DNA of 64,000 nucleotides from NCBI GenBank assembly GCA_963665235.2, contig CAXXLX010000001.1:4128001-4192000 (forward strand), read 5' to 3'. Made by a program: the position numbers and the translations under genes. The first letter of the stretch is position 1, and each line of letters opens with the position of its first letter. The notes under the pieces were generated by a model, which searched no databases, was not told the DNA's origin, and saw nothing but the letters and a program-made list of their open reading frames with translations. This stretch comes from Candidatus Poribacteria bacterium. GTDB taxonomy: Bacteria; Poribacteria; WGA-4E; WGA-3G. Of this stretch, positions 4,743 through 59,717 are shown one piece after another.

Positions 4743-5669
4743 CTATTTTCCGTTTTCAGTCAATTTTTGCCTGAATGCCTCGAGGGTGTCTACCTGTGCG
4801 GCTGTTCGGACGAGTGCTTTGAGGCGTTGTATGTCTTCTATCTGCTCGAGTGCTATCTGCAAGGTTTCATCTGTGCCGATGCCGAATCGAGCGTCAAGGA
4901 AACTCAAGATGTTTTCAACAGCAATTTCTTGTTGTCCTTGTTCGAAGATATATCGATAAGTTGATGATTCAAACATGGGAACCTCCATAAGATGTTTGAT
5001 TTCTTCGGGGTCAACGATTAACCCGCTCAGGATCCATTGCCAAAGTAGTAGGTTATTTTGAACATCAGGGTCAAGGTCCAGCGTGCGTACCTGTTCGTGG
5101 CACCGTTCGACCCATTCCACTGCGGATACATCGTCCGGTCGCTTCATTAGGGGCGTGAATGCTATGAGGCTGGGTTCACGCGTTTCCAAAACGGCTTGTC
5201 CATCAAATTTGCTGAGATGGATAACCTGATATTCGATGTCTATATTGTAGCCATTAAACTCTTGCGTATACTTTCCGGGGTCGTTATCGCCGGCCCCTTC
5301 AATCATGTAAACGGTGTGGGATAAAATGGGCAGTCCGTATTTTTCGTAACATCGCCCGATGTATCCAACTTTTCGTTTGACTATTTCTGTTTCGGGTTGG
5401 CTGCTGACTTGGAACTCTATATGCACTAAGACCTCTTTACCATTAATTCGGACCTTCGCCAAAATATCCATGCGTCGGATTTCGACGGTTGGTAGTTCTG
5501 TATCGAGGTGTTCAATGAACTCGAGGTTTCGGATGTTTGTAAAATGTCTCAACAATGCTTCGGCGAACACTGCGAATATGCCTTTGCTGACAATATCGTA
5601 TCGTTGATACGGTAAGGCTTCAAGTAGCTGTTTAAAAAATTCTTCTATCCTATCTGTCCTATCTTTCAT
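4743..5669 (-). CDS. Rpn family recombination-promoting nuclease / putative transposase (PD-(D/E)XK)
   Basis: RRMDIL..LVHIEFQ, C-terminal ESSTYRYIFEQG..LDARFG tail. Confidence 0.85.
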   Translation of the reverse strand: MKDRTDRIEEFFKQLLEALPYQRYDIVSKGIFAVFAEALLRHFTNIRNLEFIEHLDTELPTVEIRRMDILAKVRINGKEVLVHIEFQVSSQPETEIVKRKVGYIGRCYEKYGLPILSHTVYMIEGAGDNDPGKYTQEFNGYNIDIEYQVIHLSKFDGQAVLETREPSLIAFTPLMKRPDDVSAVEWVERCHEQVRTLDLDPDVQNNLLLWQWILSGLIVDPEEIKHLMEVPMFESSTYRYIFEQGQQEIAVENILSFLDARFGIGTDETLQIALEQIEDIQRLKALVRTAAQVDTLEAFRQKLTENGK

Positions 5670-9367: not shown

Positions 9368-9465
9368 TTGCATTCCTAACGAAAATGTGGTATAATTTAA
9401 AAATGCAAATGCCCCTTTGCGAAACCCACAATTTTTCTTGCACGCTCAACAGATTGTGCTACAAT
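9368..9465 (+). promoter_or_regulatory. Two tandem sigma70-type promoters upstream of the MNT-HEPN operon
   Basis: TTGCAT-17-TATAAT (9368-9396) and TTGCAC-16-TACAAT (9438-9465), both with extended -10 TG. Confidence 0.6.
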
Positions 9466-9512: not shown

Positions 9513-10262
9513 ATGGTTAGCCGTCAAGACATTCAAGCAACATGTGATGACATCGTGCGCGAATTCGCACCGTTGCAGGTTATCCTATTCGGCTCCTATG
9601 CCTATGGCACCCCTACCGAACACTCCGATGTCGACCTGTTAGTTGTCATGCAGGTGCCGAAGGCGGAAACAAGAAACCAAGCCTCGGAAATAGAACAACG
9701 GATACCGCACCGGTTCAAAATTGACCTGCTCGTCCGTTCACCGGAAGAACTCGCCTATCGTATCTCATACAACGATTGGTTTCTACGAGAAATTACGGAG
9801 AGAGGTGAAGTCCTTTATGAAGCGGATGGATTTTATCCGAAACCCTATAAGAAAGAGAATACGCACATGAACCCACTAACACTGGAATGGATACAAAAAG
9901 CTGAGGCTGATTATGCTACAGCCCGATTAATTCAACGAGAAGGAGAACCCTCAATGCATGATGCTATATGCTTTCATGCACAGCAGTGTGTTGAAAAATA
10001 CCTAAAGGCGTGGCTTCAAGAGGAAAACACTTCTTTTTCCAGAACGCACAACTTGGCGGAACTCCTGAAGCTTATATTGCCATCAATACCTTTATGGGCA
10101 TCGTGGACAGCTGACCTCTCAACATTATCAAAACATGCAGTCGATACCCGGTATCCAGGCACTTCAGCAACTGATAGCGATGTAGAAGACGCAATGAAAA
10201 CCTGCGAAAAGGTCCGACAAGCTGTCCGAAAACAACTAAAACTTGCAGATAACAAACCCTGA
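9513..10262 (+). CDS. Fused minimal nucleotidyltransferase (MNT)-HEPN protein
   Basis: LFGSYAYG..SDVDL then ICFHAQQCVEKYLKA..THNL..TRYP; ATG 9513 follows AAGGAG. Confidence 0.9.
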   Translation: MVSRQDIQATCDDIVREFAPLQVILFGSYAYGTPTEHSDVDLLVVMQVPKAETRNQASEIEQRIPHRFKIDLLVRSPEELAYRISYNDWFLREITERGEVLYEADGFYPKPYKKENTHMNPLTLEWIQKAEADYATARLIQREGEPSMHDAICFHAQQCVEKYLKAWLQEENTSFSRTHNLAELLKLILPSIPLWASWTADLSTLSKHAVDTRYPGTSATDSDVEDAMKTCEKVRQAVRKQLKLADNKP

Positions 10263-10283
10263 CGCTGCTGAAGGAGAGACAGC

Positions 10284-10640
10284 ATGGTTAGCCGTCAAGA
10301 CATTCAAGCCACATGTGATGATATTGTGCGCGAGTTCGCACCGCTACAGGTTATCCTATTCGGCTCCTACGCCTATGGCACCCCTACGGAACATTCCGAT
10401 GTCGACCTGTTAGTTGTCATGCAGGTGCCGAAAGCGGAAACAAGAAATCAAGCCTCGGAAATACAAGAACGGATACCGCACCGGTTCAAAATTGACCTGC
10501 TCGTCCGTTCACCAGAAGAACTCGCCTATCGTATCTCATACAACGATTGGTTTCTACGAGAAATTACGGAGAGAGGTGAAGTCCTTTACGAAGCGGATGG
10601 ATTTTATCCGAAACCCATAAAAAAGAGAATACGCACATGA
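10284..10640 (+). CDS. Minimal nucleotidyltransferase (MNT), second copy
   Basis: LFGSYAYG..SDVDL; near-identical to the 5-prime half of 9513-10262. Confidence 0.9.
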   Translation: MVSRQDIQATCDDIVREFAPLQVILFGSYAYGTPTEHSDVDLLVVMQVPKAETRNQASEIQERIPHRFKIDLLVRSPEELAYRISYNDWFLREITERGEVLYEADGFYPKPIKKRIRT

Positions 10641-11023
10641 ACCCACTAACACTGGAATGGATACAAAAAGCTGAAGGCGATTACGATTCAGCACAGCAAC
10701 TGCTACACGGGCAAAATCCGGTGCCTCATGTTATCTGCTTCCTTGCACAGCAGTGTGTTGAAAAATATCTAAAGGCGTGGCTTCAAGAGGCAAAAATCCT
10801 CTTTTTGAGAACGCACAACCTACAGCAACTCCTAAGTCTGATACTGCCATCAATACCTTCATGGGCATCGTGGACAGCTGACCTCTCAACATTATCAAAA
10901 CATGCAGTCGATACCCGGTATCCAGGAGCTGCGGCAACTGTCAGCGATATGGAACATGCAATGAAAACCTGTGAAAAGGTCCGACAAGCGGTTCGAAAAC
11001 AACTAAAACTCCCCGCTAAATAG
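10637..11023 (+). CDS. HEPN domain protein, second copy
   Basis: WIQKAEGD..CFLAQQCVEKYLKA..THNL..TRYP; ATGA overlap with MNT. Confidence 0.9.
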   Translation: MNPLTLEWIQKAEGDYDSAQQLLHGQNPVPHVICFLAQQCVEKYLKAWLQEAKILFLRTHNLQQLLSLILPSIPSWASWTADLSTLSKHAVDTRYPGAAATVSDMEHAMKTCEKVRQAVRKQLKLPAK

Positions 11024-11035
11024 GAGGAAACGATT

Positions 11036-12919
11036 ATGAAATCTCAAGACATCGTCGAAAAACAGTACTATGAAGCTGTCGATGCACTTGTTGAAAAGGT
11101 AAAGAAAGACCCGTATATCCTCGCTGCTATCGTTGCGGGGAGCTTTTCTTATGCACAAGTGTGGGAACGCTCGGATTTGGACGTTGAACTTATCGGTAGA
11201 GATGACATTCGCCCGACAAAATCGTTTTTCTCACTTGTGGAAAATGGCGTGAATATACATGCCTGTTTGTCCCCACGTAATTCCTTTAAGAAGGAAATAG
11301 AGAGCGCGCAACAGGGCTCCTTCATGCATTCATATTTCTCTCATAGCACGCTTCTATTTTCACGCGACGCATCTATCGAAGAGTGGTACGATAAAAACGC
11401 AAGTCGCGACAGCATCGGCGAACGAGATAAGCAGCTGCAACTGCTGAATGTCATTGCCGAGACCTTGCCCAACCTTATCTACGCAGAAAAGCAGTTCTAC
11501 GTTAACGGCGATGTGATAACCTGTTTCTTGTCACTCCTGAATGTTGTGCAAGGATTAGCACAGATAGAGCTGCTGCTGAACAATCAAATTCCAGCACGCG
11601 AAGTTATCCAACCGGCACTTAAGTTCAACCCCGAATTCTTTGAGCATGTCTATACCGACCTGATTAATTGTGAGAAAAACGAGTCGGTCATCCAAGACAC
11701 GCTTGATGCTGTTAATTCATACATCGACGAGCGTCAATTTATCTTCCAACCGATTATAGATTATCTCGCTGAGCAAAAAGGGGCACGGACAAACTCTGAG
11801 CTGAACATTCATTTTCGGACAAAATTTCGCGATGCCTCCGTAGATGTGATATGTCAATGGTTAACTTGGAAAGGGATTATCGAGCAGGTATCCACGCCAA
11901 TGAAAATCAGTGTCAAAAGTCAAATTGCGGTAGAAGAACCGGCGTACTATTACGATGATAGTACAGAACAAAAAGTGCTAACACCGCGTCTGAAAGCGGA
12001 CATCTCACCACAGATTCACGACGCGCTGGACAGCTTTATCGGGACAATTGAACAGGACCGCTACATCCTCGCCGCAGTTCTCACTAGCAACCTCGCGGAA
12101 GACAACGTGTGGGAGAAAACAATCGTTCAGATTACGCTTATTATGAGAGATGGCACAAAGTTGTCACAAAAAGCGTGTCAATTAATCGAAGCGGGGGTAC
12201 CGATTCGAGTGAGACTCTACACCCGTGGCGAGTATAGAAAGATGATAGAAAAGGCACTACAGGGGAGCCGCATCCATAGCATCCTTGCCGACAGTGAAAT
12301 CCTCTATTCCAAAGACCCAACGCTTGCCGAGCTACATAAAGACCTCAATGCCATCGGAGAACGCGATAAACAATCGCAACTCTTTAGTGCTGCAGGCGGT
12401 TTAACAGCAATACTCGACAAAACAGAAAAGTGGTTTCACGTCAAACAGGATTATGACTATACGTTTTACTATTTAATGTTTGCGGTCCGAGAATTAGCAC
12501 GGATTGAAACCCTCATGCAGGGGGAAGTCCCGAAACGGAAGGTCATCTATCAAGGTATTAAGCATAATCCGAAGCTGTTTAATGCCCTTTTCACCGATAT
12601 TATTGATGTACCGAAAGATGAGATGCTCCTCCGAAACGTTTTAAAGCAGATTGACGTATACCTACTAGACAACGTCCAGACACTTTTCAAACCGTTACTC
12701 GATTTTTTAGAGCACACGGGGGGCGAATCCGCACTGTCCGATATATATGACCACTTCGGAAATCGAGACTTGTGGTCCGCAATCGTCATGGCGTGTGAGT
12801 GGCTTTCCCATAAGGGTATCCTTGAGCAGTTTTCTGCCCCACTCCGTTTAACCATGGACAGTAAGGTCTCGGTTGAAGAGCCTGCCTACTATTACGACGC
12901 TGACAATCCGTTTCTGTAG
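11036..12919 (+). CDS. Internally duplicated YgxA/NTF-like nucleotidyltransferase-fold protein
   Basis: Two ~310-aa repeats each ending VEEPAYYYD; first has GSFSYAQVWERSDLDV; AGGAGG RBS. Confidence 0.75.
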   Translation: MKSQDIVEKQYYEAVDALVEKVKKDPYILAAIVAGSFSYAQVWERSDLDVELIGRDDIRPTKSFFSLVENGVNIHACLSPRNSFKKEIESAQQGSFMHSYFSHSTLLFSRDASIEEWYDKNASRDSIGERDKQLQLLNVIAETLPNLIYAEKQFYVNGDVITCFLSLLNVVQGLAQIELLLNNQIPAREVIQPALKFNPEFFEHVYTDLINCEKNESVIQDTLDAVNSYIDERQFIFQPIIDYLAEQKGARTNSELNIHFRTKFRDASVDVICQWLTWKGIIEQVSTPMKISVKSQIAVEEPAYYYDDSTEQKVLTPRLKADISPQIHDALDSFIGTIEQDRYILAAVLTSNLAEDNVWEKTIVQITLIMRDGTKLSQKACQLIEAGVPIRVRLYTRGEYRKMIEKALQGSRIHSILADSEILYSKDPTLAELHKDLNAIGERDKQSQLFSAAGGLTAILDKTEKWFHVKQDYDYTFYYLMFAVRELARIETLMQGEVPKRKVIYQGIKHNPKLFNALFTDIIDVPKDEMLLRNVLKQIDVYLLDNVQTLFKPLLDFLEHTGGESALSDIYDHFGNRDLWSAIVMACEWLSHKGILEQFSAPLRLTMDSKVSVEEPAYYYDADNPFL

Positions 12920-12985
12920 TTTGGCAATTGCCATAAGCCATAAGCCAGCGAAGCCAATTAATCAATAGCTAGAAAGGAGAATTTT

Positions 12986-15856
12986 ATGAGACAATCTATC
13001 GCTGTCAAAGGGGCACGAGAAAATAATCTACAAAACATAGAACTTGAAATTCCACGCGACCAGCTCGTCGTCGTTACAGGCATCAGCGGGTCCGGCAAAT
13101 CTTCATTGGCATTTGACACCGTCTATGCTGAAGGACAACGCCGATTCCTTGAATCCATGTCCACGTATGCCAAACGGTTCATCACACAGTTGAAAAAACC
13201 GGATGTGGATTTTATTGATGGGTTATCGCCGGTGGTTTCCATTGAACAGAAAACGGTGACGATGAATCCACGTTCCACTGTCGGCACGATGACCGATTTG
13301 CAAGACTATCTACGCATGCTCTTTGCAACTATCGGCGTTTCGCACTGCCCTTACTGTGAAAAGGAAATCCCAATACGGTCTCACCATCAGATTTTGGAAC
13401 GGCTGCTCTCGTTTCCAGAGGATACCGAAGTAGAAATTCATGCACCTGTCTTCAAAATCTACGGCGAAGATTACGAATACCTCTTTGACGATGTCCGAAC
13501 CAAAGGATGCCGACACGTCCGAATTGATGGCGTTGAACACGACATAAGCGAAGAAATTGAATTGGATGAGGATAAGGTATACGACATTCAGGTCATCGTT
13601 GATAAATTCTTTGTCGCCAAGGATATTGACAAACAGGTTTTAGCCTCACTTGAACACGCAATGCTGGTCGGAGAAGGCTTCATGCGGTTTGACGCAGTTG
13701 TTCCTGACGATGAAGACACCGACCCGAACGAATTCCTCGCTGATTTCGGATGCCATGAACACGGGGTGTTGATGTGCGACTTAGGGCCACACCACTTTAC
13801 CTTTAATGAACCGACTGGGGCTTGTGTAACCTGCTCCGGGCTCGGCACCTATCTCCAGGTCCATCCAAATCTACTCGTCCCCGACAAAACACGGAGCATT
13901 GCAGAAGGAGCCTTCGTCCACCAAGCCTTTAACTACGACCCCGATAGATGGGATGGACGCATGATGTACAGCCTTGCCCAACATTATAAATTCGACCTGG
14001 ATATGCCTTTTTGTGACCTTTCTGACGAAGTTGTGGATATTGTGTTCTACGGCACACGCGGCGAGGAATTTCCGCTCTGCCAAGCGGAAGGCGCAAAACC
14101 GATGCAGGAACGACATATCGGCATGCCGGTCCGATTTGATGGTATCATCACACGCATTGATAGGCGGTACCGAAACTACCGAAAACAGGGGGAAGCACAC
14201 TCTGGGATGGAGGAATATCTCCGAAAAGTGATGGTAGAACATACATGTCCCGATTGCCACGGTGCCAAACTTAAAAGGCAACGCCTTCTCGTTACCGTTG
14301 ACGATAAGACTATCCACGAAGTAGGCGAATTGCACTTTGAGCAGTTACGGGATTTCTTATCCGCAATTCAGCACATTCCCGAAAAACAGCGCGAAGCCGG
14401 CGAACGGGTTATCAAAGAACTCGTCGGTCGAATTACCCTACTACTCGGCATCGGACTGGATTACCTGAACCTTAATCGACGCTCCGCAACGCTTTCCGGT
14501 GGGGAATCCCAGCGGATTCGGCTCTCCACCCAAATCGGCTCGGGGTTAATGGGAATGCTCTACGTCCTTGACGAACCAAGCATCGGTTTGCACCCGAAAG
14601 ACAACGTCAAGATGATTGAAACCCTACACAAACTGCGCGACATCGGGAACACTGTCATTGTTGTCGAACACGACGAAAGCACTATTCGCGCAGCAGACCA
14701 TATCATTGAGATGGGGCCAGGCCCAGGTGTCCACGGCGGGCATGTTGTCATCCAGGGGACGTTCGAAAAGATTATTAAAAGCGATGATTCCTTAACGGGG
14801 CTCTATATGAGCGGAAAACGGGAGATTCCCATGCCTGAAGCGCGGCGGACCTCCAACGGCAACCTCCTGAAAATTACAGGGGCAAGAGAGAACAATCTGA
14901 AGGATATCAATGTCGAACTTCCGTTAGGTATGTTTATCTGCATTACCGGCGCGTCCGGCTCCGGCAAAAGCACGCTTGTCAACGAGATTATCTACAAACG
15001 GCTCTATTCTCTCTATCATGACAGCCGTACGCTTTACGGGGACCACGATTCCCTTGAAGGACACGAAAATATCAGCGATGTGATTAACATAGACCAATCC
15101 CCGATTGGACGTTCCCCGCGTTCTAACCCCGCCACGTATATCGGTTTTTACGATAACATTCGTAAACTCTTTGCAAGCACTCGCCTAGCAGTCGCCCGAG
15201 AGTATACCGCCTCGCGATTCAGTTTTAACGTCAAAGGCGGACGCTGCGAAGAGTGTCACGGTGAAGGCACAATTACGACACAACTCCATTTCATGCCGGA
15301 CGTTGAGGTGGTCTGTCCAACCTGTAAAAGTGCACGTTACAATCAGGACACGCTGGATGTAACCTACAACGACAAGAATATCTCCGAAATTTTGGATATG
15401 TCTATTGAGGAAGGGGTTGAATTTTTTGCCGACCAGCGGTTAATTCATCACAAATTGAACGTTCTCAACCAGCTCGGTCTGGGATACCTCCAAATAGGGC
15501 ATCCCGCTCCTATTCTTTCGGGCGGCGAAGCGCAGCGGATTAAACTCGCAAGCGAACTCGGCAAAATTAAACGGGGCAAACACAACCTCTATATCCTTGA
15601 TGAACCGACGACCGGATTGCATCTTGCGGATATCCAGAAACTCTTAGATAGCCTCAGCCGCCTCGTAGATAGTGGACACACGGTTATCGTGATTGAACAC
15701 CATCTGGACGTAATTAAGACTGCCGATTATGTGATTGACCTCGGACCAGAGGGGGGGCATAAAGGCGGTGAGGTATTGGCACGAGGTGCCCCCGAGGAAA
15801 TAGCGAAGGTGCGGAAATCATTCACAGGACAATTTTTAAAGGAGCATCTTGTTTAG
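12986..15856 (+). CDS. uvrA: Excinuclease ABC subunit A (divergent UvrA homologue)
   Basis: Two ABC cassettes ([21 protein letters not shown] twice), CxxC zinc motifs, RSNPATY. Confidence 0.92.
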
Positions 15857-19048: not shown

Positions 19049-22000
19049 TTAGAAGAAAGAGCGTCCAAGTGAACTGCCTGCCCCGAATGCATTGTAAGGA
19101 ACACCGGCCGGTAAGGTTTGGAAACCCCATGTTTCGGTAGTTGCGTCATAACCGAGTCCCATAGAAACAGCTGACTCGTCGATGAGTGTGACTTGGAAGG
19201 TAAAATCTTGTCGGACGTTATCAAATGGCGGTTCGCGTTTAATGCCAACCCGTCTCCAGGAAAGGCGAAGATTCCAGTCGTGCAAATTCCTGTTGATACT
19301 GACGCTTTGCGAATAAAATTGTCCATCAATTGGATAGTAGATAAGACTGGCATCAAATTCGAGGTTTTTACTGTGGCGGTAGCGTCCATTTGCCGTGATA
19401 GAACGCGATGCCTGAATTGAGGTGTGCCTTTTACTGAAAGAGCTTCCGAGGCTCACGTTCCACCTTTCGCGGGTGTATCGGAGGTTCGAGCGGAGCCCGA
19501 CGACTTTGAATTGTTTGCCATCGACTGGGTGTGGGTTTGGGTCATGTGTGAAGCGCACGGTCATATTTAGGTTTCGGCTTGGGAACGGGATGAGTGTGAA
19601 ATCACTCTCAATCGGTTCGTATTTGCGTCTATATAACGGATCGAATTCGGTGAAATCGGCGGTAAGGCGGGTATCAAAATAGAAGATGCGATGTGCTTCT
19701 TGACTCCGCCGCGTCTTAATCTCAAAACTTGTGCTAAAATCGTAGCTCAACCTTTTCCGTTCATAGAAATATGTACTCGGTCCAAAGGGATAGAGCGTGT
19801 CCTCTGAGTCAACAGCGGGTTGATAATTAAAGGTAAGGGTAGATTGTATTTCGTGTCGGAGCTTTCGTGCCCCGGGGATATAACTAATATTGTAGATACG
19901 GAAAAGCGTATTGGTAGCAGAGGCTCTGATACCGTACGCCCCCCCTAAAATGTTTCTATTTTTTTCTTGGTCTTTACTGTGCCAGATAAGGTTTGTATTC
20001 AAATTCAGGTTAAGTTTCAGTTCCCGCAAAGAGGTGATAAGGAGCGTTGACTGTTTACGTAGGTCGAAACCGAGGTCAAGCGTTTGGAGGAGTACATCTC
20101 TTTCCTCACGATAAACCTGCCTAAAGAAATTTCCGAATTCAATATCCATGTCAAAGCTTGTGTCTTCAAGTGTAGGGACCCTGAGCAGTGAGAGAAAAGG
20201 TTTATCGGATTTGAGTTTTTCGGAGGCGGTTAACATTCCGGTATTAATAGTTTTAAAGAGGGGGAGTGCGCTAAAACGCATCCGTGAGAAGTTGACTGTC
20301 AATTGCGGGAGTTTTTGTAGCGAAGTCGTTCCTTCGCCGGTGAAATCGTAAACGTGTCGGATTTCCAATCTGCTGGTAATATCTCCGATAGTCTGTTGAG
20401 AATAGCGCAAGTTATCATTTTCATCAACATCTTCTATGTCAAGTGCGGAGAGTGCAGAGCCGTAGGTGAGGATACCAAAGGAGTTGAGGGTAGAGTCGCC
20501 TGGGATTTGAAGGTCTTCCTTGTAATTAAGAGCCCGCCATTCTACGCGTCCGAGAAAACTGAGCGGTTTTCTTCCCGCGCCGGGTTTACTACTGTCCCAA
20601 GGCGTATAGAAAGATTGTCCGTGTCCCCAGCGTGCATTCCACCGTCTACCGATACGGGTTGCATCTCGTCTGCTAAAGGAATATTCATCTTTAGCGTAAA
20701 AGTAGAAATCACCGGTATAGGTCCGCTTTCTATCGACTTTGATGAGGTGAAACGCCTCTTTTGTTGAAATGACTCTTCGACTCATTTCGCCGCCATATAA
20801 ACTTTGTGCTTCCGATGCAACTGGTCTCGGGTCTTCCCACTGTCCACGGAACCCGTGTTTTCGGTAGACTTCAAGCTCTTCTTCTGCTGCTTCCTCACCG
20901 TTATCTTCGCCCGGTTCAGCCGTCTCGGTGCCGTTTGTGGCAGCCGTTTCCCCTTTATCAGGTTCAGAAGGCATCGGCGTAGGCTTTGCCTCTTCAGTAG
21001 GCGGTATTACTGGCTCCGCTGGCGTTGTCGGCTTCGGCTTTTCTGGCGGCGTTGGTTTAGAGTCAGGTAGGGTGTCGGTTTCCGGCTTTTCTGTTTTTTC
21101 TTCATCAGATGCAGCCATAGCCTCTGTTGAAAAAGTTTCCCATTCCGCTTCAAATTCTTCAGCGATAGCCTCAAAAGTCGGCGTTTCCTCTTTCTTAATT
21201 AATTGAAAAATGTAAAGCCCTTCAGGGGCATAGACGGGTCGGCCTTGGGTTATGTCATTAGGTTTTTCTAGGCGTCGGACCGAATACTGCCATCCGCTCT
21301 CCATTTCATTTAGGGGTAAACCTTTGCCTTCATTGATTTCAGAGAGCGTAGCTTCAGGAAATTCAGCGGCAAGTTGTTCAAAGGTTTCCTCAGCGAGAGC
21401 GCGTTCGTGAATTTTTTCTGCTACCTCGCGTAGTGTCTCTTGTGTTTCAGTGCTTGGACTAATCGCTATATCGATGCGTCGCAGTTTAATTTCGCGTTCT
21501 CCGTAAACATCAAGGGTCCGTTCAACTTTGAGGATGTGAAAAGCGGATTCGGTTTTTAAGACGGTACTAATTTCGTCTTCTTGTAGTGCAAACGCTGTTT
21601 CTTCCAAAATGGTGTCAAGTTTCGGATTGCCCTGCTGGTCCTGTTCCCCGCGTACAAGGAATCCCATATCTCCGCCCTCGTATCGGGTGTCAGAGTGGTT
21701 AGATTCGCGCTGTGCAAGACTTGCGAAGTCAGCATTTTCTTCCGTGAGTTGTTTGAGGAGCTCATCTGCTTTCTCTTTTGCCCGGTTGACATCTTCATCA
21801 TTAATCTGATATTTTAGGAAGAGTTGCTTTAGCCAGTACCGGTCGTAATCTCCTTCAAGACGTGCTTGTAATTCTTTCGCCTTGTCCTCGAATTTTGTGC
21901 GCTGGGCGGGGGTCGCTCCTGTCGGGATGGGTATGTAGATTTCTTGAAATTGTGTATCCCTGAACCGATATTTTCCTTCAAATCCGAAGCCTTGTCCGCG

Positions 22001-22987
22001 CCGGGCACTTCTGTCGTAGAGCAGCGCGCCATCATATCTCATTTTGCGTGCTAACGGTTGGATGATGCTGAAATAGGGCCCCTGGTAGCTATCCGTTCCG
22101 ACTCTAACGATAATTTTAGCCACTTTATCTTTGCGAAGGTCCCGGCGGATAGCGGGAAAATAGAAGAGCGGAAACCCGCCAATCCGTAAGACGATGTTTT
22201 TTGCAATCATCTCCTCTTTGATTCGAACAATAACCTCGGAAACGCTAAAATGGTAATGCGGATATTTTAGCGAACAGGTAGTTAGGGAAGCCCCTCGGAC
22301 ATAAGATTTCTTATCCTCTATTTTGAAGAGTTCACTTCCCCCGAAATACCACGGGTCACTGTATGTGAATCCGTTGCGTGCGATTCCTTTTTTGGTTTCC
22401 AGGTTGAAGATAAGTTCATCAGAGTATGTCTCTTCGTCCCCGACTTTGAGGTGTACGTTGCCGGATGCGCGCATCAAATTATCGTCGAAGTCAGCCCAGA
22501 CGTGGTCGGCACGCAAAATGACATTCTCGTATTTGATAAGGGCATTTCCGTGAATTTGTACCAAATTATCCACCAAAATCACCTTGTCTCCATCCCCGAT
22601 GACCGTACCTTCGGCAGGTGTCATCTTTTCAGGGTCGAGCTGTTTTTTAGCAGGTTTCTCAGGTTTGGTATCGGGAGATTCTTCTGTCTCCTCCGAAGGT
22701 GTAGGTACCGTTTGCTCTTCAGCAGGTGCCTGCTCCTCTTGGGGCACCTGAGCACTGAGGGATACTAGTGGTAAAAACAGACAGACAATCGCTATAATTG
22801 CGAGGTGCCCAACACGATTCAACCCTATAGTATGGGATGAACACGTCACGGACGGTCCACTTGTGAACTCGCCCCGTTGCATAAACCTTATCGGGTGTGT
22901 CATTTTAGAACTAGAAAGGATATCTCCGTTTTTTTGCAAAGGTTTCTCTCTTTTGTAGACGTGCTCTCGCGAGCACAACTTGCACAA
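19049..22987 (-). CDS. lptD: LptD-like LPS assembly protein with inserted parvulin (PpiC) domains; true start may be 22903 or later
   Basis: OstA-like N-domain, LTTCS..PHY, PLFYFP, barrel strands; insert with FASLAQRES..GGDMG..AFHILKV. Confidence 0.8.
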   Translation of the reverse strand: MCKLCSREHVYKREKPLQKNGDILSSSKMTHPIRFMQRGEFTSGPSVTCSSHTIGLNRVGHLAIIAIVCLFLPLVSLSAQVPQEEQAPAEEQTVPTPSEETEESPDTKPEKPAKKQLDPEKMTPAEGTVIGDGDKVILVDNLVQIHGNALIKYENVILRADHVWADFDDNLMRASGNVHLKVGDEETYSDELIFNLETKKGIARNGFTYSDPWYFGGSELFKIEDKKSYVRGASLTTCSLKYPHYHFSVSEVIVRIKEEMIAKNIVLRIGGFPLFYFPAIRRDLRKDKVAKIIVRVGTDSYQGPYFSIIQPLARKMRYDGALLYDRSARRGQGFGFEGKYRFRDTQFQEIYIPIPTGATPAQRTKFEDKAKELQARLEGDYDRYWLKQLFLKYQINDEDVNRAKEKADELLKQLTEENADFASLAQRESNHSDTRYEGGDMGFLVRGEQDQQGNPKLDTILEETAFALQEDEISTVLKTESAFHILKVERTLDVYGEREIKLRRIDIAISPSTETQETLREVAEKIHERALAEETFEQLAAEFPEATLSEINEGKGLPLNEMESGWQYSVRRLEKPNDITQGRPVYAPEGLYIFQLIKKEETPTFEAIAEEFEAEWETFSTEAMAASDEEKTEKPETDTLPDSKPTPPEKPKPTTPAEPVIPPTEEAKPTPMPSEPDKGETAATNGTETAEPGEDNGEEAAEEELEVYRKHGFRGQWEDPRPVASEAQSLYGGEMSRRVISTKEAFHLIKVDRKRTYTGDFYFYAKDEYSFSRRDATRIGRRWNARWGHGQSFYTPWDSSKPGAGRKPLSFLGRVEWRALNYKEDLQIPGDSTLNSFGILTYGSALSALDIEDVDENDNLRYSQQTIGDITSRLEIRHVYDFTGEGTTSLQKLPQLTVNFSRMRFSALPLFKTINTGMLTASEKLKSDKPFLSLLRVPTLEDTSFDMDIEFGNFFRQVYREERDVLLQTLDLGFDLRKQSTLLITSLRELKLNLNLNTNLIWHSKDQEKNRNILGGAYGIRASATNTLFRIYNISYIPGARKLRHEIQSTLTFNYQPAVDSEDTLYPFGPSTYFYERKRLSYDFSTSFEIKTRRSQEAHRIFYFDTRLTADFTEFDPLYRRKYEPIESDFTLIPFPSRNLNMTVRFTHDPNPHPVDGKQFKVVGLRSNLRYTRERWNVSLGSSFSKRHTSIQASRSITANGRYRHSKNLEFDASLIYYPIDGQFYSQSVSINRNLHDWNLRLSWRRVGIKREPPFDNVRQDFTFQVTLIDESAVSMGLGYDATTETWGFQTLPAGVPYNAFGAGSSLGRSFF

Positions 22988-23037
22988 CGCGTCATAACTG
23001 CGCGGTAATGGCTAAGCGTTTTTGAAATTACAAATAA

Positions 23038-24360
23038 TCACTCCGGTGGTTTCTGTGATGGCACCGGTTTGATTTTGATGTATGCATTTTCAAGTAGTGA
23101 ATCTGTGTAGGCAGTCCATTCCTTTTCAAAGCGTCGTTGGCGCAAAATAGTGACAATTTGCTGTTTCTCTAGTTCGGTCAATTCCGGTATATTTCGTTCT
23201 TCAAGTTTGAAGATGTGAAGTCCGGTATCAGTTTCAACGGGTTCACTGTGCTTCCCAACTGCAAGCCCCTGGATGACTTTCCTAATTTTCGGTGGGAAGT
23301 CGGTTAGTGCGCGTACGCCGAGGTTTCCGCCTTTGGCTGCGGTTTCTTTATCATCGGAATGTTCAGTAGCCAGGGTATTGAATTCTTCACCGGCTTCCAA
23401 CTTTTTGAAGAGGTCAACGATGCGTTTTCGTGCCGCCTCTATCGCCTCCTCGCTTGGAGTGAGCGGGACAGTAAGATATCGGAACGCAAGGGTTTTATCT
23501 GTTCGGGTTTCCATCATAAAAACATAGAACCCTTCAGGAGTTTCAACCGGTTCACTGATTTCGGCTGTTTTGAGTTCAGCAAGGACAGCTTGGAACGTTT
23601 TCGGAAATTTATGCATCTCTGTGAGGGAGGCTTCTATGAGTTTTCCTGCTTGCGAATTCGGATTTCGCGTTGCCTTGATATTCTGTGCAACCGTCTCAAA
23701 CTGTGTTTTATCTGTGTGAATTTGCGCCAAAGCCTTGTCGATTTTAACACGTCCAGCTTTCCGGTCAGCCTCACTCGGTTTGAATCCGACGACGATATGG
23801 CGTAAGCGGACTTTGTCGGTTTTTGTCGGAAGTTGGTCGCGGTTTTCTTCAAAAAACTTCTGGACTTCGCTGTCTCGTACCTGGAGGCGCGGCATAATAC
23901 GTCCCATGACCAATTTTTCGGTCATGAGGTTCCGTTGGCACTGCTCCCGAAATCCGATGAGGGTTGTCCCTTCCCGGTTGAGCAGCTTCTTGAATTCATC
24001 ATCGGTCTCAATTTGATACTGCTTCTTAACGTCCTGGATGTACTGTTCCACCTCTGAATCGGTGACCTCAATTTTCAGCGTCAAGGCGGCTTCAACGAGA
24101 AGCATTTGACGAATGTGCTTATCTAGTAGGGCAGCCCGTTGCTCCGCTGCCGCTTTAAGGGCTTCATCCTTGCTAAAACGGTAAGCATGTTGCAGTTCAA
24201 GGGCGCGTTGGTTGACGATAGTGTCAAGCTGCCGCTGGGTTATGATATCATCGTTGACATACGCGATGATTTTGTCAAAAATACGTGCAACCCCAGGGGT
24301 TACAAGGCTGCCGATGAGCAGTCCAATTAGTCCTATATATACAATTATTTTGGGTATCAT
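23038..24360 (-). CDS. surA: SurA-like chaperone with two parvulin domains
   Basis: FDKIIAYVNDDIIT, VRLRHIVV, HSDD..GGNLG..GLHIFKL. Confidence 0.8.
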   Translation of the reverse strand: MIPKIIVYIGLIGLLIGSLVTPGVARIFDKIIAYVNDDIITQRQLDTIVNQRALELQHAYRFSKDEALKAAAEQRAALLDKHIRQMLLVEAALTLKIEVTDSEVEQYIQDVKKQYQIETDDEFKKLLNREGTTLIGFREQCQRNLMTEKLVMGRIMPRLQVRDSEVQKFFEENRDQLPTKTDKVRLRHIVVGFKPSEADRKAGRVKIDKALAQIHTDKTQFETVAQNIKATRNPNSQAGKLIEASLTEMHKFPKTFQAVLAELKTAEISEPVETPEGFYVFMMETRTDKTLAFRYLTVPLTPSEEAIEAARKRIVDLFKKLEAGEEFNTLATEHSDDKETAAKGGNLGVRALTDFPPKIRKVIQGLAVGKHSEPVETDTGLHIFKLEERNIPELTELEKQQIVTILRQRRFEKEWTAYTDSLLENAYIKIKPVPSQKPPE

Positions 24361-24420
24361 GAGAATGCTTTCTCCACTATTCGTTTGCCTTGCCTATTTT
24401 CAGGCTAATAGATTGTCTTA

Positions 24421-24660
24421 TACCAAATTTATTTGGTTCATCGTCTTCACATACCGCCATAAACCAATATGCTATAAACATATCGTCCTTAAGAGCAGGC
24501 TGCTTGCCTGAATACTGGGACTAGCTTGTGGGGTCGTTGGGGGCTGCTATAAATATAACGCCCCTACTGGGCTAATACCAAACTTATTTGGTTCATCGTC
24601 TTCACATACCGCTCCGCTGGAGCGGAAGAGTGGAACAAGACGAATTGTGTTAATTTGGTA
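24421..24660. mobile_element. MITE with TACCAAATT/AATTTGGTA TIR and TTA target duplication; internal duplicated left end
   Basis: TTA at 24418-24420 and 24661-24663; 37-bp left end repeated at 24576; contains REP-like hairpins. Confidence 0.7.
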
Positions 24661-24746
24661 TTAGACGATAAAGTGGGGTAGGGCTGAGGTGGGACACCTT
24701 CGCCCTACGTCTCGGTTAATCGTGCGAAAACACTTTGGCTATAAAT

Positions 24747-25718
24747 CTATTCGGCCGGTTGTGTTTGCTCAGGCGGTGTTTCCTCTTCCGTTTCGGTGGG
24801 TTCATCCTCCGGAATGCGGTCAATGTATGTTTTGACTTCTGCCCGCTCGCGAAGGCGCGAGACCCACTCCTTCATGAGGGTATCGCGTGTTTGCCGTTTC
24901 ACCCGTTTCTCAACGTCCTTGCGGACATCCGCCTCATCAAAGGGTTGCTGATATTCCGCTCTGGCCTCCTCTTTACGAAAGATCATGTAGTATTTTTGTC
25001 CTTGGACTTCAACTGCAATGACACCATCATGGATAGTGTTAATTTCCGCGCTGAAAGCAGCTTCCATAAAGGGTTCAGTGCCGGGTGGATAGGAATTCCG
25101 GCTGATGTAATCGGTATCGCCTGGTGCGGCAGGATTCGCGCCGGGTCCGACCAATTCTCCTCTATCAGAGAGTTCCTGCACTGCGACTGCGATATCTTTT
25201 CCCGCTTTAATTTCAGCGAAGATTTCATCAGCTCGTTCCTTATTCTGTAGGGTGATACACAACAATCTGACCTGCTCAGGGCGGACGTAATCGGCTTTGT
25301 TTTCCTCATAGTAGCCTTTATAATCCGCTTCAGTCAAGACGAGTTTTGCGTCAACCTCCTGCGCGGTGAGTTTTTCAATCATAAGGTCGTGGAGGTAATT
25401 CTTAACCTTTTTGAGGATTTCGGTATCTTCATTCAACGCCATATCTTTTGCAAGACAGAGGATTAATCGGCTTTCGGCCATAAGCAGCATGTATTCTTCG
25501 AGCCCCGCCTTGTCTTGGTACTGACGTTGCTTATATTTGGGGAGTTCGCTAATCTCCTGCATCATCTCTTCAAGGGTGATTTGATGTTTGCCATCCCATT
25601 CGAATTCGGCAATGATAGTTTTGTCGGCACCGATTGCCTTTTCTCCACAACTGTAGAATAGGGGGTGTATGGCAAGAATCGCGATTAAAATTAGGGGTAT
25701 GCAGCTAAATTTTTTCAT
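24747..25718 (-). CDS. PpiC/PrsA-like peptidyl-prolyl isomerase-fold protein, probable lipoprotein
   Basis: Signal with YSC, YYEENKADY..EQVRL, degenerate parvulin, WVSRLRERAEVK. Confidence 0.8.
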   Translation of the reverse strand: MKKFSCIPLILIAILAIHPLFYSCGEKAIGADKTIIAEFEWDGKHQITLEEMMQEISELPKYKQRQYQDKAGLEEYMLLMAESRLILCLAKDMALNEDTEILKKVKNYLHDLMIEKLTAQEVDAKLVLTEADYKGYYEENKADYVRPEQVRLLCITLQNKERADEIFAEIKAGKDIAVAVQELSDRGELVGPGANPAAPGDTDYISRNSYPPGTEPFMEAAFSAEINTIHDGVIAVEVQGQKYYMIFRKEEARAEYQQPFDEADVRKDVEKRVKRQTRDTLMKEWVSRLRERAEVKTYIDRIPEDEPTETEEETPPEQTQPAE

Positions 25719-25753
25719 GAGTGCTATCTCCTTTCTATTAGAAGTTGCGTGAA

Positions 25754-26728
25754 CTACTTATCAGGCGTATCAGGTGCCTTCTCTGGTTCTTCTGGTTGTG
25801 CCGGGGCTGGAATGTTTTCAGGATAAGTTTTCAGTTTTCCTGCTTCAGAAATTTCGGCAATCCATGCGAGGATACGTTCGCGCTTTTTGGTGCGTTTCAC
25901 TTTTCGTTCAACCTCGGATTTGACTTCGTCAAACGCTTTCTGTCGTTCCGGTTGGTGTTCCTCCTTCCGGAAGATGAGGTAATAGGTTTCGTCTCGGACA
26001 TCCGTTTCGAAGACGACTTCGGTCATTTCGCCAATTTCTTGGGCGAAAACAGCCTCAATGAATTCGCTCCAATCAGGCGATGCGTTTATGTAAAAGAAAA
26101 ACGTGTTTCCGGGGTCGTCCTGGTTGGTGCCAGGTCCGTTTGCCAATTTGTTTTCGGCAGCGAGTGCTTTTGCGACCTCGATGATGTCTTTCCCGGCTTT
26201 AATCTCGTCCAAGGTTTGATTAGCGAAGTCCTCATCATCAAGCGTAATACAGGTTGCCCGTGCCTTTTCCGCCTCGACGTAGGTACTTTTGTGCTCCTCA
26301 TAATATGCAATAAGGTCCTCGTCTGTGTAAACGGTTTTTGCATCAACCTCCACTTCGGTGAGTTTCTCGACCATCAGTTGATAGGTGTAGTCTTCCATTT
26401 TTTCTAGATGGTCCGGCAGGGTGTCAAATTCTGCATCTTTGGCTTGAAGGAGTTTAAGTTTTTTGTCAATGAACTCCTCTAAAAATTCAGCCTTATCCGC
26501 TTTGGTAGCGAGGTTTCTCTGTCGGTACGGTGGCAATTCGGCAATGGCTGCGTTCAGGTTAGCGAGTGAAATCTGATGAGGCTCACCGTTCCAACTGAAC
26601 TCCGCTAAAATAATCGCGTTCTCATCAACTGTTTCCACAGCAGGTTCGTGGTTATCGGAACGTCCAAGAGACCAGGTGAGAAAACAGGCTGCGACAACTG
26701 CTACAACAACAATAATCGTTTTTTTCAC
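25754..26728 (-). CDS. PpiC/PrsA-like protein, paralogue of 24747-25718
   Basis: Shared IAEFxW, ELPxYxQR, CITL, GPG, YYxIFRKEE motifs. Confidence 0.8.
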   Translation of the reverse strand: MKKTIIVVVAVVAACFLTWSLGRSDNHEPAVETVDENAIILAEFSWNGEPHQISLANLNAAIAELPPYRQRNLATKADKAEFLEEFIDKKLKLLQAKDAEFDTLPDHLEKMEDYTYQLMVEKLTEVEVDAKTVYTDEDLIAYYEEHKSTYVEAEKARATCITLDDEDFANQTLDEIKAGKDIIEVAKALAAENKLANGPGTNQDDPGNTFFFYINASPDWSEFIEAVFAQEIGEMTEVVFETDVRDETYYLIFRKEEHQPERQKAFDEVKSEVERKVKRTKKRERILAWIAEISEAGKLKTYPENIPAPAQPEEPEKAPDTPDK

Positions 26729-26790: not shown

Positions 26791-29700
26791 TCAGTCAGTT
26801 GCAACAAAAGGGGTTAGAATCTGTTGCAGTGCAATTAACAGGTTTTTTCCATCCAAACCTTCTATATCAATCATAAGCTGTGCGGGTGGGCGTAACTGGA
26901 GTTTTGGATTGTTATGAACCGTTTCGATAAATTGTGTCACATCAATTTTCGGTTTGCGTTCGTCAAAGGTTGCTTTGAGCTGCTTGCTTCCAGCAACGAG
27001 ACTGGTGATACCGAGCTGCTGGCTGAGTTGCTTGATGCTTGAGATTTCGAGTAGCATTTCAACCGGCTCTGGCATATCACCGTATCGGTCTTTTAGTTCG
27101 TTCTCCAATTCGCGCCTATCTGTCTCTGTCTTTAGAGCGGAGATTTTCTTGTAGATAGAAATTTTTTGTCGGCTGTCAGGGATATATGTATCCGGCAGAT
27201 ACGCTTCAATTGGCAAATTAATTCGGGTCTCAATTGCCTCCTCAACCTTTTCCCCTTTCAAACCGCGTACCGTTTCTTCAAGCAGTCTACAGTAGAGTTC
27301 GTACCCGATGGTGGCGATATGCCCGTGCTGTTCAGCGCCGAGTATGTTGCCTGCTCCGCGAATTTCTAAGTCACGAAGTGCAATTTTAAACCCGGAACCG
27401 AGGTCGGTAAATTCCTCAATGACGCGAAGTCGTTTTTCTGCGCCCTCGGTTATCGGCATATTTTCCGGATAGAAAAGGTACCCATACGCCTGCTCGTCAG
27501 CGCGCCCCACGCGTCCCCGGAGCTGGTAAAGCTGCGCTAAACCGAACGCATCCGCGCGATTAATCATGATAGTATTGACGTTCGGAATGTCGAGTCCGGA
27601 TTCAATAATCATGGTACAAACGAGAATATCGTGTTTGTGTCGGACAAATTCTAGCATGACCTGTTCCAATTCTCGTTCCGGCATCTGGCCATGGGCGATA
27701 GCGATGCGTGCTTGTGGGACCAGGTTCCGAAGAATCTCGGCAATACTTGCGATGCTCTGCACACGATTATGAACAAAGAAAACTTGCCCATCTCGTGCCA
27801 ATTCGGTGATAATCGCATTTCGTATAACCTCCGGATTATACGGCATGACATAGGTCTGAATAGGCAGCCGATTCGCTGGCGGCGTGTTGATAACGCTGAA
27901 ATCCCGAATGCCGACAAGCGACATGTGCAGGGTACGGGGAATCGGTGTTGCTGTCAACGTAAGCACGTCCACCGTCTCCTTGAACTGTTTAATCTTCTCC
28001 TTATGTTTAACACCGAATCGGTGTTCCTCGTCAACCACGAGGAGCCCGAGGTTGTCAAAGTTGACAGTGCTTGAGAGCAAACTATGCGTGCCGATGACGA
28101 TATCAACGGTCCCCTCAGCAAGCCCGCTCTTGACCGTTTGTATCTCCTTCCGGGTGCGAAACCGATTCAGCATTTCAACGTGTATCGGAAAAGGTTTGAA
28201 ACGTTTTTCAAAGGTGTCATAATGTTGGAGTGCCAGTATAGTTGTTGGTACAAGAACAGCTACCTGTCTTTCTGCCATAACGGCTTTAAAGGCAGCTCGC
28301 AAGGCGACCTCCGTTTTGCCATAACCGACATCACCGCAGATAAGCCTATCCATCGGCACCTCTGCCTCCATGTCCGCCTTAACGTCTTCGATTGCTTGAC
28401 GTTGGTCATCGGTTTCCTGATAAGGGAAAAGAGCTTCAAATTCAGTTTGCCATGGGATATCCACTGGAAAACTGTAACCTTTGCGTGCCTGCCGGGTTGC
28501 ATAGAGTTTTAGGAGGTCATCCGCCATTTCCTCTATTGCTGCCTTGGCACGTCCTTTTTTACGCTGCCAGGCTGTTCCGCCGAGCTGGTCAAGCCGTGGC
28601 GCGTAAGCCTCATCTTTGTTTCCTAAATACTTTTGCACTAACTCAACCTGATAGGTTGGCACATAGAGCCGGTCATCGTCTCTATATTTGAGGACAAGAA
28701 AGTCCTGCGCCTGTCCATCAATATCCATTCGACGGATGCCTTCATATAGTGCTATACCGTTGGAAACGTGCACAACATAGTCCCCAACCTTCAGGTCTAT
28801 CAGGCTGAGAATCGGTGCCCCGTTGTTATAACGTCTTTTCGGTCTTCCCCTGCGTTGCTGGCTTCCGAAGAGCTCGTTTTCTGAAATAACAGCAAATCGT
28901 AGTGATTCATTGAGAAATCCTTCAGAGATAAGCCCGACGCTAACTGAAACACTTTCCGGGGAAAGGTCCCGCTCCATTAACATCTCCAACACGCGCTTTG
29001 CCTGTTGTGGGGTTTCACAGTAAACTTTGATGAGATACGCCTCGGTTGTCCACGTTTTAATATGGTCAATCACCATTTGGTAATTGCCACGACCGAGCCC
29101 GAGCGGTTTCATGCCAAAGTAGAGTTCTGAAACAGATGGCGGCTGCTGGTTATCAGGTACCGGCTCATTATTTACATCGGAAACCAAGGAGATGCGGACA
29201 TTCGGATACCTCCCTAATTCGGTCTGCAGTGTGTTTGCGGGGACTAATAATGTTTCAGGTGCGGGCATCAATTTACCTTCGGTCAGTCTCCGTGAGTATA
29301 TTGTCTGCAGCTGTTCGTGCATCTGTTCAGCCTCCCTTGCCTGCCATCGGGGTTCTACGAGAACCAGAATTGTGTCATCAGGGAGATAATCCATGAGCGT
29401 CTCTGTCTCTGGGAACAGGAGCGGTAGGAAGGCTTCAATGCCATCAATTTCCGTGGGATGTTCCTCAGCTTCGGCCGTTGCCTTCACTAACCAATTTTCC
29501 AAGGATTGTGTCATATCGCGGACAGCATTTATGAGTTCAGGCGTGTTTTCGGACCCATGCATCAATCGCTTAGTTTGTGATTGCCAATGCGTGAGCGAAG
29601 CTTCTGCAAGACACACCTCGGACATTGGCGTGAGCACGACCGATGTATCGTGTTCCACAGAACGTTGCGATGTCGGTTCGAAGAGTCGAATGTCGTCAAG

Positions 29701-55685: not shown

Positions 55686-57869
<2,184 letters not shown>

Positions 57870-59466: not shown

Positions 59467-59717
59467 TCAGCCCTCCAATATATGAAAGTAGGCATGCTGC
59501 GAAACCGGTGTCTCCGAGCGATGCCTTGCTGGCAATAAATTAAGCGCAGCCGCTCGAAGCATTGCTAAAACTTCCGCGTTGATTCGGCAATTTGTATTCA
59601 GCTATGATGCGGTTTCTGTTCAAGCCGGCTCCAAGCTGAAAATAGCTCAAAACCTTTTTCACTCTCTCCGTAAGGCGCGATGCCGATGTCGCGCCAGGTC
59701 CAGTGCAAAACGTGGAT

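Follow-up and report, generated by a model that had tools for sequence, protein, structure and literature searches.

Two neighbouring genes of Candidatus Poribacteria, an uncultured marine lineage best known as sponge symbionts, raise the question of whether a doubled nucleotidyltransferase (NTase) and a divergent UvrA, hereafter UvrA*, act in one pathway or share a neighbourhood. The window analyzed here is a stretch of 64,000 nucleotides containing both genes. An original prediction, made from the letters alone, had described at 11036–15856 an NTase with one active and one inactive repeat, coupled to this UvrA and placed behind MNT-HEPN modules. Our analysis confirms that core observation.

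Layout of the locus

The genes form a run on the plus strand, and a window gene scan added two genes on the minus strand that the original prediction had not mentioned.

9368–9396, plus strand: sigma70-type promoter-like element heading the gene run (TTGCA-type −35, 17-nt spacer, TATAAT −10), putatively active
9513–10262, plus strand: MNT-HEPN copy 1, fused; Pfam NTP_transf_2 and HEPN of the HEPN-T type (PF05168); start probably 9513, from a ribosome-binding site and ATG
10284–10640 and 10637–11023, plus strand: MNT-HEPN copy 2, the split version of copy 1 (MNT and HEPN, respectively)
11036–12919, plus strand: tandem NTase, 627 aa (ORF call)
12986–15856, plus strand: UvrA*, 956 aa (ORF call); divergent full-length UvrA of class I architecture
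26791–30405, minus strand: mfd
55686–57851, minus strand: ligA

The HEPN stop lies at 11023; the tandem NTase gene starts 12 bp beyond it and is separated from uvrA* by 66 bp, both as described before. Likewise, neither uvrB nor uvrC was found in the main window ORFs scanned (17 + 6 + 33 queries; overlapping shadow ORFs among the 88 listed were left out).

Conservation of the gene pair

Among the matches listed, 79 of 372 genome matches gave related loci, all from Poribacteria. The adjacency of NTase and uvrA* is conserved, as the two are neighbours in 62 of these 79 loci. The link spans both main clades and several differing flanking contexts, and the pair is inherited vertically and stably at housekeeping conservation. 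Gaps of up to 6.6 kb between the two genes are tolerated, and insertions lie between them in 31/63 pairs; type ISP restriction-modification, HigB and Phd/PIN genes are inserted at related loci. Nine loci having at least 5 kb of downstream sequence are without uvrA*. Since all 79 loci belong to one lineage, the linkage may be inherited gene order. Downstream of uvrA*, uvrD is present in 38 loci; it follows uvrA* in 37 of the 50 with enough sequence, a rate similar to that of the NTase link.

A tblastn search for homologues returned none in 72,556 plasmid and 50,697 phage records, and viral fold matches were generic NTases with a TM score of the query of at most 0.23; a mobile-element origin was rejected on these searches. 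PADLOC assigned the window protein to no family, a HalB profile matched weakly in 8/49 relatives (E 6e-5 at best), and no known anti-phage partner genes were seen among 27 neighbour families scanned with Pfam. A downstream 2H-phosphoesterase, considered as an eraser, was found in 0/79 loci and was also rejected.

MNT-HEPN genes are optional inserts

The predicted upstream MNT-HEPN modules are present, but the first is one fused gene; the second matches it at 674 of 766 aligned bases and has lost 1 bp in the linker, which splits the gene in two. The MNT motif GS-x10-DxD occurs in 46/47 upstream ORFs, the exception being a stand-alone HEPN. The HEPN motif R-phi-xxx-H-x-Y is not conserved; RX4-6H matches are scattered, with no common position. 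HEPN-T may use an alternative His.

MNT-HEPN genes occur in 38/79 loci and are absent from 41/79. The promoter-like element precedes the NTase gene in 33 of the 41 loci without MNT-HEPN and in none of the 39 with it (window included); there it precedes MNT-HEPN instead in 28/39, against a background of 13/401 other genes. A generic promoter scan did not list the 9368–9396 element, and some uvrA* genes have a promoter-like sequence of their own. An operator search upstream of four gene types recovered the promoter-like element and ribosome sites and no convincing conserved palindrome. The idea that MNT-HEPN is a core component is therefore ruled out, and it is instead an optional insert behind a shared promoter-like element.

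The tandem NTase appears to build one active site from two repeats

The 627-aa protein consists of two YgxA/3C18-like units, each with an NTase domain, a helical bundle and a winged helix. As predicted, the halves are homologous (36% identical over 303 aa, E 5e-70).

11036–11956, plus strand: repeat 1, residues 1–307; NTase with G35 S36 S46 D47 D49, helical bundle without the family lysine (Y149), winged helix
11993–12919, plus strand: repeat 2, residues 320–627; broken NTase motif, intact helix K462 K465 W466 K470 Y475, E588, winged helix

Its YgxA-like membership was borne out, as 3C18 is both the best sequence match (E 5e-8) and the best fold match (Foldseek 3e-12, Z 16.2), and the profile and fold matches span 280 of the 290 residues of 3C18 with the three-domain plan present. 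However, PF22339 scored 22.4 bits, below its curated cut-off of 27, and PF14540 matched 1/49 relatives. By these comparisons, the tandem NTase is a sister family of the YgxA-like proteins, not a curated PF22339/PF14540 member. The next fold matches are ANT(4′) (Z 13.1) and LinB (Z 10.8). Winged-helix matches at residues 547–627 reached Z of about 7.5–7.8, level with background.

The GS-x10-DxD motif of Pol-beta nucleotidyltransferases is present in repeat 1 and absent from repeat 2, where G35 S36 / D47 D49 are replaced by S351 N352 / I363 Q365; this is the asymmetry noticed originally. In 78/78 full-length copies (loci and window), the listed repeat 1 motif residues and Y149 are invariant, and K462, K465, W466, K470, Y475 and E588 of repeat 2 are each kept, whereas the positions of the former NTase motif in repeat 2 vary freely. 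By alignment only, the third catalytic carboxylate position, on the following strand, is His75 in 119/125 first repeats, so catalysis is not assured; in single-unit relatives it is mostly His or Asn.

The losses are reciprocal, with metal and phosphate residues held by repeat 1 and the conserved family helix by repeat 2. All 125 tandem homologues, mostly close kin, have exactly one intact GS-x10-DxD. In 122 of them the family lysine is lost from the intact repeat and kept by the broken one; three keep it in both, and the opposite pattern does not occur. Relatives with a single unit generally keep both features (intact motif 113/120, family lysine 112/120). A domain-level test of reciprocity is modest (Fisher p 0.039). 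Tandems originated at least four times independently, some with reversed repeat order. Four of 22 single-unit proteins scanned carry an ECF sigma factor or an AraC helix-turn-helix as a fusion partner.

In KNTase and LinB, the site joins one subunit's NTase domain to basic residues from the helical domain of the second subunit (PMC4631478). This analogy and the reciprocal losses make it likely that the tandem protein has one composite active site, made by the repeat 1 NTase domain and the repeat 2 helical bundle. An intramolecular pseudo-dimer, as first proposed, agrees with the structure model (pTM 0.85 over the whole 627-aa chain) and the conserved asymmetry. As for the suggested catalytic/regulatory pair, repeat 2 does not look purely regulatory; given its reciprocal conservation, it is probably the trans half of the catalytic site rather than a regulator.

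UvrA* is a full-length UvrA with a remodelled docking domain

UvrA* is divergent, as claimed: it is 46–49% identical to seven canonical UvrAs that are 56–78% identical to each other, with a stem of 1.56. The position of its clade among UvrAs is an open fork with a long-branch warning. Against four divergent references, of which three are class II-like, its identity is 37–43%; the Acetoanaerobium reference, a truncated sequence, was left out of the docking-domain comparison and the stem and tree analysis. The non-canonical segments quoted in the original prediction are there, and they do not vary among 42 aligned relatives.

The class I plan is complete, with a UvrB-binding domain, an insertion domain, three zinc modules and two intact ABC sites. 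Both Walker A/B and signature motifs and the three zinc sites are kept (61/61), with C121/C124/C256/H259 invariant, as are the R712/R724/R730 equivalents (61/61), three of four tested DNA-binding arginines. The insertion domain keeps 5 of 13 canonical-invariant columns. Across 29 loci, UvrA* matches GatA in conservation (90.5 vs 90.0%). A poor AlphaFold model of UvrA* (pLDDT 54.7) was set aside. The suggested comparison with DrrC/Ecm16 did not survive: UvrA* has both the UvrB-binding domain (PF17760 E 3.8e-20) and zinc module 1, and because the domain losses that define those proteins are absent, membership in their class was rejected.

13379–13690, plus strand: remodelled UvrB/Mfd-docking domain of UvrA*, residues 132–235

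The divergence is marked in this docking region, which is 27% identical between UvrA* and canonical UvrAs, 50% among canonical UvrAs and 82% within the UvrA* clade. Its net charge is −17 to −23, compared with −1 to −7 in canonical proteins. R176>H, R206>K and D/E219>A are fixed (61/61); these positions, whose conservation was computed here, are presumably UvrB/Mfd contacts. R216>Q is found in 59/61, position 185 is still acidic and the equivalent of E222 is retained; R216 and E222 are UvrB/Mfd-contact residues (PMC3025350). The window Mfd retains the R165/R181/F185 equivalents, the canonical UvrA-binding residues, of which R165 and R181 also act in Mfd autoinhibition.

No other uvrA was found in the window or related loci, and the best 120 of 552 matches in a UvrA homology search were UvrA* clade members only. 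Since the related loci are syntenic and a small share of each genome, the missing second uvrA says little. The supplements of PMC3909097 and PMC8546597 give no uvrA counts. On balance, we think it more likely than not that a separate second uvrA exists in the lineage.

Possible functions

From the folds, residue patterns, linkage and shared promoter-like element observed here, we tentatively propose an ancestral Poribacteria pair that would deal with chemical or DNA-directed stress by a route other than standard excision repair. As a full explanation we rate this somewhat below an even chance; that NTase and UvrA* work in a common pathway comes closer to even. The 627-aa protein would be a KNTase/LinB-type dimer condensed into one chain, its second site having decayed. 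The repeat 1 NTase domain would bind NTP and metal, the repeat 2 bundle would give the trans lysine and substrate-side residues, and NMP would be moved onto a small molecule or partner; our first guess at the substrate is a toxic natural product, DNA-binding or otherwise. The winged helices may keep the protein at DNA. UvrA* would still hydrolyse ATP and scan DNA for distortions, with a docking domain unfit for canonical UvrB/Mfd that may serve a different partner or none. Ordinary excision repair would fall to a separate uvrA, and MNT-HEPN and toxin-antitoxin genes would be passengers inserted in the run. In a bolder version that we consider unlikely, UvrA* has swapped UvrB for the tandem NTase and delivers distorted or drug-bound DNA for nucleotidylation of a ligand, lesion or bound protein.

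UvrA* could instead be the lineage's sole excision-repair UvrA, co-diverged with UvrB, beside an unrelated NTase kept there by inherited order like uvrD-gatC-gatA. UvrA* exceeds the cut-offs of the canonical equivalogs TIGR00630 and PRK00349, its homologues are named uvrA by NCBI, and its housekeeping-level conservation, the downstream uvrD and the failure to find another uvrA all agree with this. Still, we find it somewhat unlikely: the docking domain has diverged far beyond the core and turned strongly acidic, domain 2 of the window Mfd is canonical, and the uvrA search reached little of each genome. A distinctly unlikely reading keeps both proteins specialised but independent, sharing a neighbourhood or a general stress regulon, with the NTase inactivating a small molecule like KNTase/LinB. 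The ANT(4′) and LinB matches fit it, as do the frequent insertions between the genes and the sigma and AraC fusions, which suggest a self-contained inducible function, but the NTase-uvrA* link outlives the upstream context and MNT-HEPN across both clades.

An anti-phage or toxin-antitoxin system, in which the NTase, like Hailong HalB, would produce a nucleotide signal or else modify HEPN, with UvrA* sensing DNA, is very improbable. A weak resemblance to HalB and MntA in fold and profile, MNT-HEPN directly upstream and the restriction-modification and toxin-antitoxin inserts point toward it; against it stand the PADLOC result and weak profile matches of relatives, stable vertical inheritance, empty phage and plasmid searches, and a HEPN that is dispensable and has no conserved RNase motif. 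We give still less credence to a nucleotide- or ligand-sensing DNA-binding regulator whose NTase pocket binds without catalysis. Two winged-helix domains, the His at the third carboxylate position, the sigma and AraC fusions and the fact that 3C18 itself has no intact motif over its aligned part would suit such a protein, but repeat 1 never varies at GS, S46 or DxD, most single units keep the motif, and no convincing palindrome lies upstream.

The tandem is a natural experiment that separates cis from trans residues in the uncharacterised YgxA-like family, and because the one-site solution evolved repeatedly, the mechanism is open to test by a few point mutants. Should UvrA* prove to have a new partner, DNA scanning of the UvrA type would feed into non-excision pathways. 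The UvrB-swap version, if true, would give a UvrA-initiated marking or detoxifying pathway instead of excision, and a first function for the YgxA family. Together, these observations hint at an undescribed DNA-protection route.

Comparison with known systems

The three-domain unit is common to the tandem NTase and YgxA-like/NTF-like proteins (3C18; PF14540, PF22339). At ~15% identity to 3C18, the tandem family differs in retaining GS-x10-DxD, in being doubled in one chain and in having a single intact motif. With ANT(4′) and LinB it shares an NTase domain and helical bundle, with equally spaced phosphate serines and metal carboxylates; both of these enzymes complete their sites in trans, a scheme that the conservation pattern of the tandem protein would fit. 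Unlike them, it is one chain with a single site and an added winged helix, has His in place of the third carboxylate and is encoded by a chromosomal core gene. The upstream genes resemble type VII HepT/MntA and FhepTA in that their MNT has GS-x10-DxD and is either fused with HEPN or next to it, but this HEPN-T is without the R-phi-xxx-H-x-Y that FhepTA keeps and is optional at the locus.

UvrA* has all domains, ATPase motifs, zinc sites and most DNA-binding arginines of class I UvrA, but differs in its low identity, long stem, acidic rebuilt docking domain and altered insertion domain. With class II UvrA (Ecm16, DrrC, Deinococcus UvrA2) it would share being a paralogue that may work without UvrB; those proteins have neither zinc module 1 nor the UvrB-binding domain, whereas UvrA* has both. 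A full-length UvrA whose docking face is conserved yet rebuilt falls outside both the repair class and the Ecm16/DrrC class.

Structure of the tandem nucleotidyltransferase

Re-reading the sequence confirmed the coordinates, spacing and motifs originally described for the nucleotidyltransferase (NTase) gene and its UvrA neighbor.

9513–11023: MNT-HEPN gene copies
11036–12919, forward strand: NTase gene, encoding a 627-residue tandem of YgxA/3C18-like repeats
12986–15856, forward strand: uvrA*, encoding a divergent 956-residue UvrA

As first noted, the 627-residue protein consists of two homologous repeats (residues 1–307 and 320–627), with halves 36% identical (E 5e-70). A profile built from 49 units matched 3C18 at E 5e-8, and 3C18 also ranked first in a fold search (Z 16.2, rmsd 4.5, 280 aligned). 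Within each unit, the NTase domain is accompanied by a winged helix and by a helical bundle resembling HEPN. The AlphaFold model is confident across all 627 residues (pLDDT 85.2, pTM 0.85), which implies a fixed relative placement of the two repeats in the predicted structure. The family has 1113 representatives at E ≤0.001, and the best 150 are mostly single units of ~310 residues. Named homologs come from Candidatus Poribacteria; for single units, the named sources are Fimbriimonas and Ignavibacteria, the latter with a partial protein. Among related loci, the NTase gene is doubled as two whole tandem copies in L028 (10001–14181) and broken into two ORFs in L056 (10001–12159) and L046 (357–2352).

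One predicted active site from two repeats

The firmest new result of our analysis is a one-site pseudo-dimer. All 125 collected proteins with two full units carry exactly one GS/DxD motif, located in repeat 1 in 122 and in repeat 2 in 3. Single units retain this motif in 113/120 cases, and 112/120 have a conserved lysine-bearing helix. The lysine is lost from the motif-bearing repeat and present in the other in 122/125 tandems, and present in both repeats in 3/125; the reverse pattern was never seen (0/125). In Poribacteria, repeat 1 retains G35, S36, S46, D47, D49, H75, E189, and Y206, and repeat 2 retains K462, K465, W466, K470, Y475, and E588, each in 78/78 full-length copies. The 125 tandems are mostly close kin, and the tree supplies independent evidence. 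Tandem units form six groups (trees of 41 and 107 rows), with nine label changes, at least four of them forced by well-supported branches. One motif is broken in all six groups; reciprocal lysine loss occurs in three, and the other three show no loss. One of the three groups with reciprocal loss, that of P0259, has the repeat order reversed. From these sequence patterns, we infer that the tandem protein has a single composite active site. Two observations count against catalysis: His or Asn stands at the third carboxylate position, and no catalytic base was identified.

UvrA* has a rebuilt docking face

UvrA* scores above both UvrA equivalog cut-offs and carries the UvrB-interaction and insertion domains. 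The divergence first noticed was borne out, as UvrA* is 46–49% identical to seven reference UvrAs (one incomplete reference was left out) versus 56–78% among the references. In a 19-row tree, the stem of its clade measures 1.56 changes per column versus 0.14–0.62 for reference end branches. Across the 61 clade members, neither ATPase site is disrupted and all zinc ligands are present. Of the canonical-invariant columns, UvrA* keeps 14 of 30 in the docking region (the UvrB/Mfd-docking domain, residues 132–235), whereas the last ATP-binding segment retains 44 of 47. The net charge of the docking region is −17 to −23 in three members computed versus −1 to −7 in canonical proteins, with domain boundaries that we partly presumed. 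R176 is His, R206 is Lys, and D/E219 is Ala in 61/61 members, positions which we take to be UvrB/Mfd contacts. The UvrA interface residues named in PMC3025350 are R216, which is Gln in 59/61 members, and E222, which is kept. Among four DNA-binding arginines mutated in the same study, three are conserved (R712, R724, R730), the exception being R722. The comparison with Ecm16 is not supported: PMC10192343 and PMC3167621 describe Ecm16 and UvrA2 as missing zinc module 1 together with the UvrB-binding domain, a domain that UvrA* has, so UvrA* is not class II.

The window encodes Mfd and LigA. Neither uvrB nor uvrC was detected among its main ORFs scanned, in line with the original reading. Mfd (26791–30405, reverse strand) has a canonical UvrB-homology domain 2 and served as an internal control. 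It retains equivalents of R165, R181, and F185, a putative UvrA-interaction surface (PMC3025350); two of these residues also serve autoinhibition. The mismatch between the UvrA* docking face and a canonical Mfd suggests that a separate, canonical uvrA may exist in the lineage. The rebuilt face is solid as sequence and putative as a change of function.

Gene neighborhood

The best 80 of 372 matches in a genome scan gave 79 loci, 76 labeled Poribacteria and 3 uncultured bacterium. Among these, the predicted adjacency is conserved: uvrA* lies downstream of the NTase gene in 62/79 loci and within 1 kb in 51/79, with gaps up to 6.6 kb and inserted genes for Phd/PIN pairs and WD40 proteins. The linkage is found in each of the two main clades and with several kinds of upstream context. 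Of the 17 loci without uvrA*, 8 extend <5 kb downstream and the other 9 extend further; in most of the 17, the NTase gene is followed by genes for type ISP restriction-modification and HigB. Type ISP, HigB, or TPR genes occupy the uvrA* position in several separate branches (L030, L034, L046, L061, L065, L067, L069, L070, L071, L074, L076), suggesting an insertion hotspot.

MNT-HEPN lies upstream in 38 of the same 79 loci (best 80 of 372 matches), almost always as a fused gene, and ≤100 bp away in 13. A conserved promoter-like element sits before whichever gene comes first, MNT-HEPN or NTase; MNT-HEPN is therefore an optional insert. Its HEPN is of the HEPN-T type and shows no conserved RX4-6H. 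Fused HEPN-T domains of this kind are described as typically inactive, and some HEPN-T domains use an alternative His (PMC3710099). The gene is locally duplicated in the window, and a 1-bp deletion splits copy 2, with overlapping stop and start codons. This split could reflect either a sequence error or a natural switch from the fused to the split form. L002, L016, L017, and L019 also have local duplications.

Other genes observed in the window are as follows.

4743–5669, reverse strand: 308-residue ORF without a confident Pfam match, presumably resembling Rpn-type nuclease-fold proteins; relatives in L026 and L054
15918–16472, reverse strand: 2H-phosphoesterase, convergent with uvrA*; absent from the 79 related loci (best 80 of 372 matches)
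19049–26728, reverse strand: 1312-residue protein without an NCBIfam match at E 1e-10, adjoining three parvulin/SurA-like genes; our impression is of an LptD-type protein into which isomerase domains have been inserted
32902–34104, reverse strand: TnpB-family RNA-guided nuclease; weak relatives in five related loci
58042–60062, reverse strand: aldehyde dehydrogenase adjoining a microcompartment shell protein gene

Possible function

Coupling of the NTase and UvrA* is plausible but putative. We tentatively favor a reading in which the tandem protein, as a single-site NMP transferase, would serve one stress or detoxification route jointly with UvrA*, as a DNA-scanning ATPase that has abandoned the standard UvrB/Mfd hand-off. 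Four of 22 scanned single units are fused to ECF sigma factors or AraC, and these fusions point to a probable inducible protective role without naming a substrate. In P0171, P0227, P0230, and P0253, the YgxA-like unit follows an ECF sigma factor or AraC helix-turn-helix; the sigma-factor unit is possibly a sigma C-terminal extension. That the tandem protein is instead a non-catalytic regulator is the least probable reading.

It is less likely, given the docking face, that UvrA* is simply a divergent sole repair UvrA with the NTase gene as an incidental neighbor. Still, no second, canonical uvrA was located in the related loci, the best 120 of 552 UvrA search matches, or the available supplements of PMC3909097 and PMC8546597. 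Moreover, uvrD follows uvrA* in 37/50 loci with enough sequence, then usually gatC and gatA, so inherited gene order alone could account for much of the linkage. Across 29 shared loci, UvrA* (90.5% mean identity) and GatA (90.0%) exceed UvrD (81.9%) and the NTase (79.8%). That both proteins are specialized but act independently we consider rather improbable; a defense system is very improbable.

Comparison with known systems

We found nothing in the literature on the 627-residue protein, its UvrA pairing, or a Poribacteria UvrA paralog; subscription papers or bioRxiv supplements could hold Poribacteria uvrA counts. The available text of PMC12796330, PMC7835731, PMC2794190, and PMC11985968 has nothing bearing on the pairing, and the main text of PMC2794190, as available, does not mention 3C18. 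After 3C18, the closest folds to the tandem protein are ANT(4') (Z 13.1, rmsd 3.9, 236 aligned) and LinB (Z 10.8, rmsd 5.8, 228 aligned). FhepTA is described as retaining its RNase motif (PMC13000451), whereas the MNT-HEPN here has no conserved RX4-6H. The feature is real and well conserved, and is a variant assembled from known parts.
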